Assembly: GCA_964016885.1 (NCBI GenBank)
Contig: OZ024741.1
Span: 162,378,001-162,442,000 of the forward strand
DNA: 64,000 nucleotides
Origin: Eledone cirrhosa
Taxonomy: Eukaryota
Direction of reading: 5' to 3'
Part shown: in pieces, positions 23,884 to 58,980 of the stretch
How the letters are laid out: every line of letters starts with the position of its first letter
How positions within the stretch are numbered: the first letter of the stretch is position 1
Notes under the pieces: model-generated
Told to the model about the DNA's origin: nothing
Seen by the model: only the letters and a program-made list of their open reading frames with translations
Database searches by the model: none
Translations under genes and position numbers: made by a program

Positions 23884-23921
<38 letters not shown>

Positions 23922-24734
23922 TATGTAAAAGGTAAACAGAAATAACAACACAATCGGTACAGTATATGGAAGATATATTAGGTTAACGCTTGAAATAACA
24001 GGTCCATTCATGTTGCCATTTCTCTCTCTCTATATATACACGAAAATGTCATATACTGTTGACGAAGTGCTACATAGCTACATGGATGAGCATGCATACG
24101 ACATATATTTTATTATTATTTACTTGTAGCAGAGCAGTGAATTAGCAAAATTGTTAGAGAACGGGACAACATGCTTAATAGTATTTGGTGATGGTTCTTT
24201 AGGTTATGAGTTCAAATCCCACCGAGGTCAACTCTGTCTTTCCGTGGTCGATAAAAGTACCTGTCATGTGCTAGGGTCGATATAATCCACCCGATATAAT
24301 GGCCTTGTGCCGAAAGTAGAAATCATTAGTAAATAAAGAAACCAGCATTTTAGTACCTAAAATAAATATAATCATTAATTTTAGATGAATTGCTGATTTA
24401 CTCGGAATTTCTGCATCTAAAATACGATATTAATTTATATAATTCTCCAAAGTATTTTTCTAAGCAGAATCTACCCTAGACAACACTGTAATGCGTCCCT
24501 TTATATTATGACGGCAGAGGTGTGAGGGGCATTTAGCTGCTACTCTTAGCAGGGAGAGTGATTGATCACTAATACCACACATCGGACTGGAAACATGACA
24601 GGAGTTATCACCCATACCGGGCGATGGAAATGTGTTCATACACACTGAAAAACCATATATTTGACCTATCTTATAGCAAACTATTTTTTTCCGCCCTAAA
24701 TAGTCTTTCTTCTTCTACTTCTTCTTAAAGACCC

Positions 24735-26360: not shown

Positions 26361-26614
26361 AAAAGTTTTAGAAGTAAACTCCAGGGCCCCTTCTGTGGTG
26401 TGTAGGTCTCCACCGATTTTTTAGTAGAGTGTGTGTGTGTATGGCAATATATATATATATATAAGGGAATAGGATTTCGCTTCAAGCATGGCTTATACAA
26501 TATGTATAGACATTTCGTATTTCGAAAGGAATACGATTTTAGGAAGCCGTAGCTATGCGAACACCGGCGGGGCTAACACCCTCTGGTGTTGTCCAGCAGA
26601 AGCAAGGGGGACAA

Positions 26615-26656
26615 CCGTCTATGCATTTCAGGCTTGACTGGCCATCATCAGGACGA
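26615..26656 (-). ncRNA. Minimal type I hammerhead ribozyme
   Basis: Minus strand: UCGUC-CUGAUGA-U-GGC cagucaa GCC-U-GAAA-UGCA-UA^GACGG. Stem I UCGUC/GACGG; palindromic AUGCAU as helix III. Confidence 0.8.
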
Positions 26657-26827
26657 TCCCTCCCACTGCTCTGCAACTGCTGGACTTCAAAACAGCCGAG
26701 AACAAATAATTTTCTCGTCTGTGTAAATGAGGTGATTAATCTCATTTGCATATGAAGCTGCATAAGTTGGCTCAACTTATAATAGAAAAGAAATAGGATT
26801 TCGTTTCAAGAATAGCTTTATACAATA

Positions 26828-27603
26828 CTAGCAGTAAAGCCCGGCGTTGCTCGGGGTCGCTCAGTAGCTGTGTTAAAGTTACAATGTTAAGTTTCTTTTT
26901 TGGCTTAAAAACTGTAATGTCTACTGTGCAGACTTGCATGTGGTGTTTTTGATTAATATTCCCTCAACCAACAATATGCCTTATGAAGTTAAGAAAACAT
27001 AACGATAACCAGAATGTTATAACAAAAGAGGATGCTGGGGATAAAAACTGCACTGGTTATTTATTAACAAAGATCGAAAATGTAAACACTGCAACGCAGA
27101 GAAAAACATTAGCGTAACCAAATTATCAGTTGTCTGTCTGCACGCCTATATCACCTCTCTGCACGACTGTCTGTCTGCACGCCTGAAATATTTGCTTGTT
27201 TTAAATAGACTTGTTTTCAAGTAAAAATATTGTTTTAAAATGCTTTTAAATGGAAATGAAGCAAAACGGAAGCTTAGTGTTCGAACTGATGAATTTTGCA
27301 GGTCAATATTTTGCTGGCTCGACAACTGTTCGTTGAGAAAGCCAGCGTAATTTTTTACGTAAGACGCTCAATGTAAACAGAACAAAGGGAAATAACTGAT
27401 AACTTACGCTCAAAAATCGATACATTATATTCGATTTCGTCACATAGGGTGGGTCAATTTGAAATATTTTTTTTTCCGATGTCTTCGCTAGGGCTCAATG
27501 TACAAGTATAGCAATTTCGGTGCAATTCCGTGAGAGATTCTAAGAGGAGATGTGTGCCAAAAATCGATAGACAGACAGACAACCACAGTTTTATATATAT
27601 AGA
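26828..27603 (-). mobile_element. Non-autonomous Helitron (776 bp)
   Basis: Minus strand starts TC and ends CTAG; subterminal hairpin CCCGGCGTTGCTCGGG; (GACA)n. Inserted between A and T with no TSD, and the empty site is preserved in the paralogous repeat (acaata|tgtataga, ~26497-26510). Confidence 0.9.
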
Positions 27604-28459
27604 TGTATAGAAATTTCGTATTTCGAAAGAAATACGATTTTAGGAAGCCGTAGCTATGCGAACACCGGGGGGTTCACGCATTTTTTTTTTGTCCCGTACA
27701 ACTTTTGCATATTAATTACATAGACCCTCTCAGTTAACCGAAGATTTTCACCTCACAATATTATATATGTGAAACCCTAAAATCTCACAGATAACATTAA
27801 GCTAAATAAATAATGTAATATACATTTATATTTTTAATATAAAGAGTGGTGTGCTCATGCGCGGATATGCTATAAAATAGGGTGAAGACCCTTAAAGACG
27901 ACCACTACTAGGAATCGAACTCTGTATCTCCCAGGTATCATACATATATCATAAACACACACACTATATATGTGTGTGTGTGTGTTTGTATGCATACATA
28001 CATGAATATATATATATATATGAAGACAGGAGATTGATAACATGAAAAATAATCTCTTTTCTTCGTATTAATTTGTGTATCTATACTCAGTTAACTACCA
28101 ACTATAGTCTCATATCATCTATGGAACGGTACTTTTCACTTTGCATAATGTATATAGATTACACCCGGATTAATTATGTATTATGGGGCAAATGACACAC
28201 ATTACATTAATAGTTTGAACGAAGAGAAATATATATACATATTATAAATTAGTCTGAAACTAGCTGTTGAAACGCAAGAGCTCAGCTGTCGGGTCCCGAC
28301 TCTTTATAATATAACAATACTCTACTACTCTACAAGTATCGAGTACTATGTTGAGTAATGGTCTAACCAGTTTCAAACTGAATCCATCCAGTTTATATAT
28401 ATATATCGACCTGCAGTATTTGTTGTTATTCATAATCAGTATGACTACATTTTCTTAGT

Positions 28460-37630: not shown

Positions 37631-37955
37631 TCAACTCGTGTGTTACATTTCTACACTTGTTATATACACACACACACTACTTAGATATTGAATTCTCTAA
37701 CAAAAGTAACCATCCCTAGTATTATATATCATAATGGGACCACCAAGTTCCATACTGTCAATGTGGTTGGAGTTAGGAAGGGCATCCAGCTGTAAAAAAT
37801 TGACCATAATACAGTTCCGGTTGAGCAAGGTACAATGTGGCCAAAAGGCCAGACTTGCCTCATAGTTTCCGTCAAATGGGTTGTCCACGCTAAGACATTA
37901 AGAGATGATGATAAGAGATGTCAACATGAATGGACTTATTATTTTTATCTAAAGA

Positions 37956-38134
37956 CATTTTTTCCAATTCCATCTCATCCGTCCCCTTAATCTATTTTAT
38001 TTCTCATTCTTTCTTCTGATGAAGAAGTAGTGTCCGAAACGTTAAGACCCTCTTCCTGCTATATCAAGCGTTAACCTAATATATTCCTTCCATATACTGT
38101 ACTGATTGTGCTGTTATTTCTGTTTACCTTTTAC
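37956..38134 (+). mobile_element. ~180-bp (TA)n-associated element with a minimal hammerhead (38012-38047); copies at 58747-58926 (-) and truncated at 23925-24003 (-)
   Basis: TCTT-CTGATGA-a-g(a)a(g)TAGTGTCC-GAAACGTT^AAGA. The other copy reads TCTT-CTGATGA-a-GGACTAG(cgca)C-GAAACGTT^AAGA. Confidence 0.75.
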
Positions 38135-38450
38135 ATATATATATATATGAAAAAATGGTGTGCTGCGTGGTTGCAAATGGGTTACATATGAATAAATTTA
38201 GTCCTTCATCAGTGATCTTCCAACCTTCATTGGTATTTCATCGCTTTAAAGACCATATACCTCTGGTTGGTGCGAGTAACGGCTAAAGAAAGTCGTTGGG
38301 ACAAGTAAATAAGGGGAACGAGCGAGACAGTAAACAATCAAAGATGGTAATGCAATGAAAAGTGAGGAAGAAGGAGTCAAGTCCCTGAAATCGATGAAGG
38401 ACTGTGATCACTGATGAAGGACTGTGATCACTGATGAAGGACTAAATTTA

Positions 38451-38496
<46 letters not shown>

Positions 38497-40441: not shown

Positions 40442-41011
40442 TTATTGTAGCATCAAAGACTTAAGGTTGTCTTGTAAGATTTTAGACTTGACAGAGTCAA
40501 ATACAAATCGGATATTTTCTGTATCGATTGCCGTTGTAAAATGGTGATAGAGTAGTCCTGTCTTGTTGCGTCTTTTATTATCAAACATGTCCAGTATAAA
40601 ATCCTGGACATCTGTAATGGAATGTGGGTCCTTGTCAAAATTTGAAAAGTAGTCCTTTATGCTAATTTCTTTGACTTTTTCTTCAAGCAGATCAGTTTTA
40701 TTCAAGAAGAGGATAAATGCCATCCCAGCAAACAATGAATAATTGACTAATGTTTCGAAAATATCACAGGATTCAACCAATCGGTTGGTGTGACGATCTT
40801 CCTGGAGAACTTGGTCGAATTCACTGCTGGATACAAGGAACAGAATGGAGGTTACGTCATCAAAACACTTGTACCATTTGGGTCGCTGTGATCTTTGGCC
40901 ACCAACATCAACAAAAAGGAACGGAATGCCACAAATTTTTATTGGATGCTCCACAATACCTTTTGTTGCCTTCCTTGCCAACAGAATGTCAAGTTTTGAT
41001 GGAATGTAACT
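40442..41011 (-). CDS. GNA12/13: Heterotrimeric G protein alpha 12/13 (concertina-like), terminal coding exon
   Basis: tttcAG acceptor, then [18 protein letters not shown] (switch I), DVGGQRSQR (G3), FLNKTD (G4), HHFTTAIDT (G5) and the G12/13-type C-terminus NLKSLMLQ-stop; 570 nt. Confidence 0.96.
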
Positions 41012-42389
41012 CTGAAAAAAAAAAGAAAAAATAACAATAATAGTCATCTTTATTATGTTTATCATAACAATAATTGTTTCTACTTTTGGCACAAGGCCAG
41101 CAATTATCCAGTGCATTACTGGTACTTTATTTTATCGACCCCGTAAGGATGAAAGGCAAAGTTAACCCCGGTGGAACAATAATACAACAAAAATAAGGAT
41201 TTAATTAAACATGAGACAAAGATAATTTGGTAGTAAAAAATTAACCCTTTCGTCCCATATTTCTAATGAAAGACTGCCTTTAATTTTTAAATCATTTTGA
41301 AAATAAAAAGAAATTCGGAGGGATCTAATAATATAACTAACTTTTCAGTGTTAATCTGGTGTTTGGAACATAGCTTAAAACAAAGCATAATGTAATATTA
41401 TGATGGAAGGTTTTTAGATAAATATAAATACTTCAAAATTATAATAGTTTTCTATTGTAGATACAGGTGGTTTGGTTTCAAAATGATTAAAAAAAAAAAT
41501 GCAACACATTTAGTAAATATCTTTTATTACCACAATAAAATTAATAATTAAAAAAATATAATGTCATGAGGGGAAGAGTAGCATGTATAACAGTTTTTAG
41601 GGCTCAGTGACTTGTGGGGAGAAGTTATTCTCTGTGGAAACCTATACCAAGTGCCTGCAACATATTGGTCTCTGCTAAAGGCACCCAAAGACTAAGTGCT
41701 GGTGTTAAACTTGGGGACAGATTAAGTCAATATGAAATACTTTCGACAAAAAAAAAGTTGATAATACATACTAATATATATGTCCTCATTTTGGTTGTTA
41801 TAGTCACACAAACTTGGTGCTAAATAACATCAACACTTCAATCACTAAGCACACACAGACTTAAAATTTAATCTCTTTGCCACTAATACAACAGCTTCTG
41901 TTATCTGAACTAGTTAGCTACATCGTGTCTCAGCCAGACACTCTTGTCCCACCTATCTCTATCACCTTGTTACCTCCTAAAAGCATGTAGACCACCATGT
42001 TAGGTGGTCATGCTGGTCCCGTGACATGGGTACTCAGCCTACCCTGTAAAGTGATCATACTGGTGCCATGCCAAAAATCATCCAGTCAACTAGGTGGCAG
42101 TGGTGATGCAACTAGAAAGGGCTTTCAGAAAACATGCCAAAATATAGCATATGAGTAAGACAGTCATCTGACTTGTCTAACCTCAGAATGTGACAACCCA
42201 TCTAACCTATGCAAGCATGAAAAATAGACATTAAGTGATGATGATGATGATGATTCATAGAGTGGGTAGAAAAAATGCTTTTTTGTAAAACATAAAAAAG
42301 TTGTATATATCCAGTTTAGAATAGATACACTGAATCGCTACGTATTGTAAGACGTTACTAAAAGGGTTGACACCAGGAAGGACATCATC

Positions 42390-49254: not shown

Positions 49255-49305
49255 CTTCTGTCCTATTCTGAGAATATTTTCCAAAAAATATTTCAGTGAA
49301 TCACC
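49255..49305 (-). CDS. GNA12/13: G alpha 12/13 internal 51-nt exon
   Basis: ttcAG-GDSLKYFLENILRIGQK-GTAGG. Homologous to the GESVKYFLDNLD.. segment and splices in phase 0 to SYIPS. Confidence 0.92.
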
Positions 49306-50837: not shown

Positions 50838-51790
50838 ATAGTATAAGGAATGTTACAAAACACCATATAAGGTATGAGATAGAACACTGTATAATATGAT
50901 AATACACCATATAAGGAATGTGGTAGAACACCATATAAGGTAAGTGTTAGAAGAAGGTAAGTGATAGAACAGAGTATAATGTGATAACACACCATATAGG
51001 GAATGTTACAAAACACCATATAAGGAATGTGAGAGAACACTGTATAATGTGATAACATACCATATAAGGAATGTGAGAGAACACTGTATAATGTGATAAC
51101 ATACCATATAAGGAATGTGAGAGAACACTGTATAATGTGATAACATACCATATAAGGAATGTGAGAGAACACTGTATAATGTGATAACATACCATATAAG
51201 GAATGTGAGAGAACACTATATAATGTGATAACATACCATATAAGGAATGTGAGAGAACTCTGTATAATGTGATAACATTCCATATAAGGAATGTGAGAGA
51301 ATGCTGCATAATGTGATAACATACCATAAAAGGAATGTTACAGAACACTGTATAATGTGATAACATACCATATAAGGAATGTCACAGAACACTGTATAAT
51401 GTGATCACATACCATATAAGGAATGTGAGAGAACTCTGTATAATGTGATAACACTCCATATAAGGAATGTGAGAGAATGCTGCATAATGTGATAACATAC
51501 CATATAAGGGAATGTTACAGAACACTATATAATGTGATAACATACCATATAAGGAATGTTACAGAACACTGTATAATGTGATAACATACCATATAAGGAA
51601 TGTCACAAAACACTGTATAATGTGATCACATACCATATAAGGAATGTTACAGAACACTGTATAATGTGATAACATACCATATAAGGAATGTGAGAAAACG
51701 CTGTATAATGTGGTAACATACCATATAAGGGAATGTTACAGAACACTGTATAATGTAATAACATACCATATAAGGAGTGTGAGAGAACAC
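50838..51790. repeat. 44-bp minisatellite (~21 units)
   Basis: Unit AACACTGTATAATGTGATAACATACCATATAAGGAATGTGAGAG, with degenerate edges. Confidence 0.95.
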
Positions 51791-55415: not shown

Positions 55416-55899
55416 TTGACATATCGACCCTGGACTCCAAAAATGAAATATGTTCAATGCTAATGCTGTCATTATTAATGGCACTAATCCTCTAGTTTTA
55501 TAGAGAGAGGATACATTCCTAACTCTTACTGATAATCAGGACAGTACAAACTAGTCATTAAATATTTTAGTTCCACCCAGCCACTCTCATCTACTGCAGG
55601 ACAATGTTTCAGCAACAACACTGTTTTTAGCAAAACAGTGCATAATAAATACAATTTATGCACAGATTACAGATGTATACTTGTTCATGTAGTTTACAAT
55701 AGAAGAGAATAACAGAACTAGAACCTGGTTTAAGTTACTATCTTAGTAACGAAATAATCAATAATTTTAGAAAGCCCCACCAAATTCTTCATTAATTAAA
55801 TGAAATACTATGTATTTCATTAGAAATAAACTAGTGAAGAAAGTTAAGTAAACAGAAGAGTATTGAACCAGGTGGTTTTCTCTAAATCACAAGGCAGAA

Positions 55900-57425
55900 G
55901 TGGTAGTGCTGGTACCACAATAAGATGCATTCAGTACACTCTGTAACGTGGTAGTGCTGGTACCACAATAAGATGTACCCAGTAAAACTCTATAAAGTGG
56001 TAGTGCTGGTACCACAATAAGATGTACCCAGTAAAACTCTATAAAGTGGTAGTGCTGGTACCACAATAAGATGTACCCAGTAAAACTCTATAAAGTGGTA
56101 GTGCTGGTACCACAATAAGATGTACCCAGTAAAACTCTATAAAGTGGTAGTGCTGGTACCACAATAAGATGTACCCAGTAAAACTCTATAAAGTGGTAGT
56201 GCTGGTACCACAATAAGATGTACCCAGTAAAACTCTATAAAGTGGTAGTGCTGGTACCACAATAAGATGTACCCAGTAAAACTCTATAAAGTGGTAGTGC
56301 TGGTACCACAATAAGATGTACCCAGTAAAACTCTATAAAGTGGTAGTGCTGGTACCACAATAAGATGTACCCAGTAAAACTCTATAAAGTGGTAGTGCTG
56401 GTACCACAATAAGATGTACCCAGTAAAACTCTATAAAGTGGTAGTGCTGGTACCACAATAAGATGTACCCAGTAAAACTCTATAAAGTGGTAGTGCTGGT
56501 ACCACAATAAGATGTACCCAGTAAAACTCTATAAAGTGGTAGTGCTGGTACCACAATAAGATGTACCCAGTAAAACTCTATAAAGTGGTAGTGCTGGTAC
56601 CACAATAAGATGTACCCAGTAAAACTCTATAAAGTGGTAGTGCTGGTACCACAATAAGATGTACCCAGTAAAACTCTATAAAGTGGTAGTGCTGGTACCA
56701 CAATAAGATGTACCCAGTAAAACTCTATAAAGTGGTAGTGCTGGTACCACAATAAGATGTACCCAGTAAAACTCTAAAGTGGTAGTGCTGGTACCACAAT
56801 AAGATGTACCCAGTAAAACTCTATAAAGTGGTAGTGCTGGTACCACAATAAGATGTACCCAGTAAAACTCTATAAAGTGGTAGTGCTGGTACCACAATAA
56901 GATGTACCCAGTAAAACTCTATAAAGTGGTAGTGCTGGTACCACAATAAGATGTACCCAGTAAAACTCTATAAAGTGGTAGTGCTGGTACCACAATAAGA
57001 TGTACCCAGTAAAACTCTATAAAGTGGTAGTGCTGGTACCACAATAAGATGTACCCAGTAAAACTCTATAAAGTGGTAGTGCTGGTACCACAATAAGATG
57101 TACCCAGTAAAACTCTATAAAGTGGTAGTGCTGGTACCACAATAAGATGTACCCAGTAAAACTCTATAAAGTGGTAGTGCTGGTACCACAATAAGATGCA
57201 CTCAGTACACTCTGTAAAGTGGCAATGCTGGTGTCACAATAAGATGCACACAATACATTCTATAAAGTGGTAGTGCTGGTACAACAATAAGATGCATTCA
57301 GTACACTCTGTAACGTGGCAATGCTGGTGTCACAATAAGATGCACACAATACATTCTATAAAGTGGTAGTGCTTGTGTCACAATAAAATGCATTCAGTAC
57401 ACTCTGTAAAATGGAAGTGCTGGTG
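55900..57425. repeat. 49-bp minisatellite (~31 units, ~25 essentially identical) derived from a SINE body
   Basis: Unit GTGGTAGTGCTGGTACCACAATAAGATGTACCCAGTAAAACTCTATAAA; runs into SINE sequence aagtggttaacattaggaagggcatccagc. Confidence 0.97.
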
Positions 57426-58746
57426 CCATGAGCAAGCGCTCCCAGTGCACATTGCAAAAAGTGGTTAACATTAGGAAGGGCATCCAGCCATAGAACCTTT
57501 GCCAAAATATGGAATATATAAGAAAGACATGTTTCTCTGAACCATCTAGTTTTTGAACTGCAGAGGTCCATGCTGGCATCGAAAGCGGACATAAAATAAT
57601 TGTTTCTACGGTTGGCACACGGCCAGCAATTACCCAGGGCATAAAATAATGATGACGATGAACATACGCTTCCATAAATTAGAAGTATTAGTTACAAAAC
57701 AGAAGTTTCAGAAGTATTAGTTACAAAACAGTAAAACCGAAAAGTTAGCAAGTGCTTTTAAATAAATCACATTATAAGGTCTAAGCAAAAATTAAAAGAA
57801 TTATACAAGAAAAAAAAAATGAACAAGCAAAATAAAGAGCATTTGTCTATCTGCTGATGTGTGTTTATGTGGGTGAAGTAAAACAAGGACTTATGAATGA
57901 ATTCTTGATACATACAGTTCAAATCTGAATACAATTTATAAGACAAGTATAAAGAAAGAAAAAAGAACAAGCGACTTAGTTTTTTTATCTTTCTGTAATG
58001 TTTATTTAAAACCCTTTTGATACAAAACTGTGTTTTTATTTATCTAAGAACTCCTCATCGTAATTATATGTAAATACCTGTGTTATGTTATGTTCCAAAT
58101 GCAAACGTATTTAATACTAAATACTGCAAAATTCTTGAAAATGATTTAAAACTCATAGGCTATGTCTTTCATTAGAAATATGCTAATGAAAGGGTTAAAG
58201 AGCAAAAGAAAATATCAAAACATTGAGAAACCAAATATTGTAGACAATAGATATGGCAGTAAAGTTGATTATTGTATAAACAAATTAAGTCCAACAATGA
58301 AATATAAACAAAAGCCTGGTGACAAGAATCGAAGTGGGAATTAACCTTTTGGTACCAAACCTACCCCAAACCACCTCTGGTTCTATGAAATAAAACAACT
58401 TATTCACAGGGTTCCTATTTAAATAAAAGTCTTCCAAACATAAGGACCTTTTGATATGTTAAAAATACATCTTAATAATGAAATAATAATTTTACAAAGT
58501 CCTTCCAAATTTTACATTCAAATACATAGTATTTTATTAGAAATATACTAACAAAGAGTTTAAGTAACATAAAATAACATACAAACGATTTGAATTCAAT
58601 CCCACTGTATAGTACCTTGGGCAAGTCTACTACAACCTCAGGTTGACCAATGCCTTGTGAGTGAAATTATATAGATGGAAACTGTGTGGAAGCCTGTTGT
58701 GTATATGTGTGTGAGTGTATATATATATATATATATATACATATAT

Positions 58747-58926
58747 GTAAAAGGTAAACATAAATAACAACACAATCTGTACAGTATATGGAAGGAATAT
58801 ATTAAGTTAACGCTTGAAATAGCAGGAAGAGGGTCTTAACGTTTCGTGCGCTAGTCCTTCATCAGAAGAAAGAATGAGAAATTAGAAAGATTGAAGGGAC
58901 GGGTGGGGCGGAATCAGAAAAAATGT
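58747..58926 (-). mobile_element. Second copy of the ~180-bp hammerhead-bearing element (ribozyme 58834-58869)
   Basis: Reverse complement of 37956-38134, flanked on both sides by (TA)n. Confidence 0.75.
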
Positions 58927-58928
58927 TA

Positions 58929-58980
<52 letters not shown>

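Follow-up and report, generated by a model that had tools for sequence, protein, structure and literature searches.

The window analysed here is a stretch of 64,000 nucleotides of the Eledone cirrhosa assembly (GCA_964016885.1, contig OZ024741.1). On its reverse strand it carries exons of a G-alpha 12/13 gene (40442-41014 and 49255-49305); the frame at 40445-41014 is 93% identical to an Argonauta hians protein, which makes the host an octopod, and the first 154 residues of the protein were not found in the window. Two minisatellites lie further along, with units of 44 bp (51015-51790, 17.6 copies) and 49 bp (55898-57428, 31.4 copies). Scattered over the same 64 kb are three copies of a short element, none of them in tandem arrangement. 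Their existence and their hammerhead ribozyme motif had been claimed in a preliminary description of this DNA, and both proved real by alignment and by descriptor matches. Copy 1 lies about 2.3 kb beyond the G-alpha stop codon, in antisense orientation. From the layout of the exons, copy 2 probably sits in an upstream intron of the gene, on the sense strand.

Copy 1 (37913-38136, plus strand) comprises about 224 nt of the 3' end of its family, as judged from family depth and from alignment to the other two copies. It is 5'-truncated relative to longer family members: family depth in public sequencing runs begins in the bin 37905-37913, and loose ends of reads and contigs accumulate before 37913 and behind 38135-38148. 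Copy 2 (58747-58926, minus strand) has 180 nt, its 5' end falling 42 nt short of that of copy 1, and has a (TA)n run on either side (58718-58746 and 58927-58976). Copy 3 (23925-24019, minus strand) consists of a 5' piece and a 3' piece of the family, fused at a 10-nt microhomology (24002-23993). Expressed in copy 1 positions, the 5' ends vary (37913, 37955 and about 37918 for copies 1, 2 and 3, respectively), and the 3' end falls on the identical base in all three copies, each time beside TA. The (TA)n run in which copy 1 ends (38134-38148) is the likely integration target, to judge from the sequence and from runs X1, X10 and X5, where the loose ends beyond 38135-38148 are TA or CA repeats. 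Past the 3' end of copy 3 stands a (TA)16 run (23886-23918), and its 5' flank is a mixed short microsatellite. The association with microsatellites was thus correctly recognized at the outset. The accompanying statement that the element lies within (TA)n is accurate for the 3' end of every copy, but only copy 2 is flanked on both sides, copy 1 having the repeat at its 3' end only.

A gapless alignment of copies 1 and 2 covers 180 nt (37955-38134, plus, with 58926-58747, minus) and shows 21 differences. None of these differences affects the 16 core positions or the 8 helix I positions of the motif, so that the exact retention of the core and of AAGA reported for both copies stands. Between these two copies alone the identity of the core is not significant (chance 0.05), and another identical run of 26 nt sits outside the motif. 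Helix II and its loop (38024-38035 and 58846-58857) differ at 5 of 12 positions, vs 16 of the 144 positions beyond the motif (binomial 0.008, post hoc); this excess contrasts with a helix that is kept in the majority of the family. In copy 3, positions 24019-23993 match 37918-37944 at 24 of 27 nt. The joint runs through a 10-nt near-repeat (37935-37944 and 38055-38064), with 120 nt deleted internally and the entire ribozyme gone; one contig of run X5 holds a similar joint (37935 to 38052). Copy 3 had been taken for a truncation close to the cleavage site. Because it is an internal deletion, the 11-nt gap between its breakpoint and the cut site is incidental, and the breakpoint is uninformative on cleavage.

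From its sequence, the published consensus and a pair table, the motif of copy 1 (38012-38047, plus strand) is a minimal type I hammerhead. Helix I pairs UCUU (38012-38015) with AAGA (38044-38047), and its 4 bp lie within the 2-6 bp expected of minimal hammerheads. The core CUGAUGA with an extra A (38016-38023) is followed by helix II (38024-38035, two pairs broken), GAAA (38036-38039) and the palindrome ACGU (38039-38042), with the predicted cut after 38043. In the motif of copy 2 (58834-58869, minus strand), the 3' arm of helix II carries changes that break its two middle pairs. The changes fall on opposite arms, at 38025 and 38027 in copy 1 and at the equivalents of 38033 and 38034 in copy 2, and leave two of four pairs in each full copy. 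Helix III is reduced to A15.1-C-G-U16.1, a palindrome at 15.2-16.2 that forms no stable helix, and the predicted cut follows GUU; the sequence agrees here with the earlier view that dimerization would be needed. A descriptor built on the published minimal-hammerhead consensus matched the window at copies 1 and 2 only, and found nothing in 200 dinucleotide shuffles.

The size of the family became apparent from public sequencing runs (four of 12; X7, X8 and X9 were excluded) aligned to 37896-38150 at a likeness of at least 80%. Matching sequences numbered 12,225 contigs (run X1) and 13,134 reads (run X10) in organism A, 6,969 contigs in organism B and 106 contigs in organism C. These are counts of contigs and reads and not copy numbers, yet the family is plainly high-copy in three organisms, and its description as abundant was justified. 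In runs X1, X10 and X5 the majority base is G at 38025 (94-98%) and C at 38027 (91-98%), which restores the helix II arms GGAC/GUCC with four pairs, closed by G10.1-C11.1. An ancestral hairpin GGAC-TAGT-GTCC had been reconstructed from the opposite-arm changes of the two window copies; its arms are those of the majority, but C at 38031 (74-87%) gives the loop UAGC and not UAGU. A consensus without stem II pairing had been named in advance as grounds for refuting the ribozyme claim, as had a core kept no better than the rest of the element together with consensus RNA that does not cleave. As to conservation of the core, 0 of 32 stem and core sites are variable vs 28 of 192 sites outside (Fisher p 0.01), a test that is weak because the 40 of 109 variants listed for it were chosen by the tool, and one drawn from reads preselected for likeness of at least 80%. 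Among the same 40 of 109 variants, helix II showed no change that would compensate for another. For organism C the match covers mainly 38008-38051, and loose ends flank 38008-38010 and 38045-38051, so that the motif is shared and the flanks are different. The motif is the best-kept part of the element.

These data bear on the possibility that the likeness to a hammerhead is accidental, or that the motif is a relic free of constraint in this family. Helix II is broken in both full copies, the majority monomer is not predicted to fold into the motif, and none of the 58 matches of an Rfam scan of the window (E up to 5) was to a hammerhead family. The Rfam miss, however, would be expected for a motif devoid of helix III, and coincidence agrees poorly with the empty shuffles, with a helix II that is restored in the majority and with a motif that outlasts its flanks across organisms. 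We regard this explanation as scarcely credible.

The element is longer than any copy in the window, as follows from its 5' continuation in reads and contigs. In run X10, 1,554 reads extend 5' of 37913 (median 93 nt, agreement 0.72), as do 80 contigs of X1 and 48 of X5; these share a consensus end, and the X5 consensus is nearly that of X10. A 13-letter motif of the continuation gave seven matches with two mismatches in the window vs 3.2 expected, none of them exact. Depth in X10 falls from about 7,500 near 38080 to about 2,500 near 37930, a slope that may come partly from subfamily divergence at 37966-37999. In that region a second type of upstream sequence joins at 37995-37999 in both reads and contigs, a sign that one subfamily may differ in its 5' part.

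A unit of about 180 bp, as first proposed, does not fit this picture, since family depth starts at 37913 and many members reach further 5'. The wider idea of a stand-alone ribozyme element of fixed length, mobilized by a partner other than Penelope and with ends set by self-cleavage, could draw on the starts of copies 1 and 3, which are about 5 nt apart, and on the failure to find a coding partner in the window or in protein searches. Against it stand the 5' continuation in many family members, the origin of copy 3 by deletion, a motif of the type found in Penelope-like elements (PLEs), and the loose ends: none of the 24 of 862 loose-end positions listed for organisms A and B falls at the cut site (38043-38044). 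Copy ends had initially been tied to that site, a connection that the deletion in copy 3 and these loose ends do not sustain. We consider a stand-alone element very unlikely.

The minimal hammerhead leads instead to a known class of retroelements. Such motifs have been described in the pseudo-LTRs of metazoan PLEs (Cervera and de la Pena, 2014; PMC4209133), and every position of the motif fits the consensus given there in Fig. S3, namely a U-rich 5' flank, CUGANGAH, G10.1-C11.1, GAAAN, NUH and a short helix I. As described in that paper, PLE hammerheads share with the present family the type I topology, a helix III consisting only of the palindromic 15.2-16.2, the extra base after A9, closure by G10.1-C11.1, the short helix I and U-rich 5' flank, and an occurrence as mostly solitary, dispersed copies in large families. 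By our count by eye, 15 of its 56 examples have the same ACGU palindrome and GUU site (C-G-U-U), and eight of these are tied to PLE ORFs (PMC4209133). An unusual class is not supported, as this ribozyme architecture is the published signature of PLEs. The family departs from the 56 examples in its cephalopod host (none among them) and in being a family with no linked ORF, and its helix II of 4 bp with a 4-nt loop stands at the short end of their range (PMC4209133, same examples).

The behavior of the copies is also that of a PLE: a fixed 3' end is combined with variable 5' truncation, and the (TA)n microsatellite target is one used by several PLE clades. Truncation at the 5' end, partial tandems and a preference for (TA)n are recorded for several of these clades, octopus families included, in PMC8557442. 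We conclude that the copies, members of a high-copy octopod family with a minimal type I hammerhead motif, probably represent 3' ends of a Penelope-like retroelement, truncated at 5' and derived from its pseudo-LTR region. As no reverse transcriptase or endonuclease is linked to the family, we infer its membership in PLEs from this resemblance to a PLE 3' end.

Under this PLE reading, a Penelope-type GIY-YIG endonuclease would nick (TA)n and the element would be pasted in by the reverse transcriptase. Reverse transcription would begin at the 3' end of the element and usually stop early, so that most copies would hold the last 100-300 nt and one ribozyme. Where source copies lie in tandem, the ACGU palindromes of two ribozymes would give them a common helix III of 4 bp and allow a cut after GUU, which would trim the element RNA from a longer transcript. 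Solitary copies would not cut, and decay would follow.

Neither the window nor our protein searches yielded a reverse transcriptase or GIY-YIG sequence for the family. Of the 54 stop-to-stop frames in the window with at least 90 aa, 14 were scanned against Pfam, and none of these gave a PLE protein. In copy 1 the motif lies within a frame that runs from 37913 and is interrupted by one stop. Its 55-residue translation was considered as the end of a Hydra-clade endonuclease (CxH), an idea set aside because this frame contains a stop (37998 A) in copy 2 and in the organism B majority. Protein searches with the 55 residues returned four candidates, none of them scoring, and another search returned none; two tandem-repeat proteins were artefacts.

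Among PLEs of octopuses, the Hydra clade with Hydra-1_Obim of Octopus bimaculoides (Craig et al., 2021) resembles our family in host, in (TA)n targeting and in having its hammerhead 100-180 nt from a fixed 3' end (PMC8557442). The distance from the hammerhead to the 3' end, about 144 nt here when counted as in a table of PMC8557442, lies within the 104-183 nt given there for six novel Hydra elements. However, all Hydra hammerheads listed in that paper have a helix III of 3-4 bp, which the family motif lacks, and for this reason we do not place the family in the Hydra clade; the 3' end of Hydra-1_Obim also looks unrelated by eye. The Naiad PLEs of cephalopods similarly share (TA)n targeting, 5' truncation and remnants in octopuses, but according to PMC8557442 they have no canonical hammerheads, and the octopus Naiad entries hold half a core at most. 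More generally, Penelope elements are abundant in octopuses according to two of six papers (PMC7229834, PMC6765202, PMC7761336, PMC13282606, PMC6962438 and PMC8967140), and the giant squid has 235 Rfam hammerhead-1 hits (PMC6962438).

A further relationship to be weighed is with the non-LTR retrozymes of animals, which share a short non-coding unit, a type I hammerhead and a probable reliance on PLE enzymes (PMC7229834; bioRxiv 10.64898/2026.07.22.740005). The source would in that case be a non-coding unit of some 240 nt or more, transcribed in tandem, cut by its hammerheads, circularized and re-inserted in trans by a PLE enzyme, the dispersed copies being its monomer offspring. A tandem joint does exist: 41 reads connect 38137 head to tail with 37913 by way of a 16-nt stretch of the upstream consensus, a partial tandem with a 241-nt unit, which is within the 150-300 bp given for animal retrozymes in PMC7761336. 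A 2026 preprint moreover derives retrozymes from PLE pseudo-LTRs and describes families rich in monomers (bioRxiv 10.64898/2026.07.22.740005), and to that extent a retrozyme origin overlaps with the PLE reading preferred here. However, the 41 reads have only two starts, and a joint to the opposite strand at 38112 was seen with one read start. A circular template should yield permuted ends, whereas the 3' end of the family is fixed. Retrozymes, as described in PMC7229834, form tandem arrays and circular RNAs and use canonical hammerheads with loop-loop contacts and a certain amount of helix III. The motif here is minimal, showing neither helix III nor the loop 1-loop 2 contacts of the retrozyme type, and the family is found mainly as monomers, with the reservation that short reads and contigs may hide arrays. 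A retrozyme source is unlikely in our estimation.

The core and the same helix II arms recur at nine loci of a metagenome collection with unrelated flanks, in matches to a pattern that fixed the core but not helix I. Helix I has 3 bp in five of the ten matches, 2 bp in one and none in four, three of these four being one locus counted three times. No match to the core pattern was found in prokaryote genomes or viral contigs. The nine loci were rejected as members of our family, as BLAST aligned only the motif in two of them and gave a 21-nt chance match in a third. At one locus (L009) a fragment of a reverse transcriptase (154 residues, PF00078) ends about 90 nt upstream of the motif on the same strand. 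It scores below the Pfam cut-off (E 6e-5, 23.3 bits vs 29.6), and its atlas neighbours carry PF26215 and PF00078; from its motifs we take it to be of Penelope type. By analogy, and at one of nine loci, its position next to the core would support the PLE reading. Eight loci (L001-L003 and L005-L009) belong to another, unrelated family of animal origin that has this core. Several of its copies start just a few bases ahead of the core, and one copy, in L006, is inverted.

With respect to activity, the copies in the window are likely inactive, as each full copy keeps just two of the four helix II pairs and stands alone. For the majority monomer, folding predictions favor two competing hairpins, with probabilities of 0.10 for helix II and 0.01-0.03 for helix I, and the ACGU duplex has a predicted energy of only -1.7 kcal/mol; given these values, the active fold draws no support from energy alone. 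Such weak predicted folding agrees with the low in vitro activity of minimal hammerheads, even as dimers, reported in PMC4209133. We also entertained a more specific form of the PLE reading, in which the family is a short, non-autonomous Penelope-derived unit that is itself mobile in octopods, its ribozyme, devoid of helix III, shut by two competing hairpins in the monomer and firing only when two element RNAs meet. This is speculative and on balance rather unlikely. If true, its thousands of copies in three organisms would provide the first direct in vivo test of minimal hammerheads in Penelope-type transposition.

Thousands of minimal hammerheads are on record from animal genomes, which makes one more family ordinary. 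Our literature searches turned up no report of the minimal motif in a cephalopod, and the family extends it to this group. The cellular role of these ribozymes is still called a mystery in PMC7761336, and the chief use of the family is as a large sample on which to study what they do. With three organisms deeply sampled and at least one tandem found in nature, the family offers material for studies of covariation, of intron depletion on the sense strand and of RNA ends.

Two neighbouring features of the window deserve mention. At 26600-26660 (minus strand) lies another hammerhead, with a palindromic UGCA tetraloop, a GUA-like site ending in A and a TA run nearby. It shares no sequence with copies 1 to 3, and the family was rightly distinguished from it; a 70-nt piece of its 3' part (26502-26571) recurs at 27603-27672. 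Beside copy 1, at 38183-38460, is an element of about 280 bp that is single in the window. Its ends form an inverted repeat of 35 bp (38183-38217 and 38426-38460), and a 20-bp unit occurs in it 2.5 times. It could be a MITE, or the 3' end of another PLE with an inverted truncated copy. Its ends hold CTGATGAAGGAC, which is the first half of the family ribozyme with no second half behind it.
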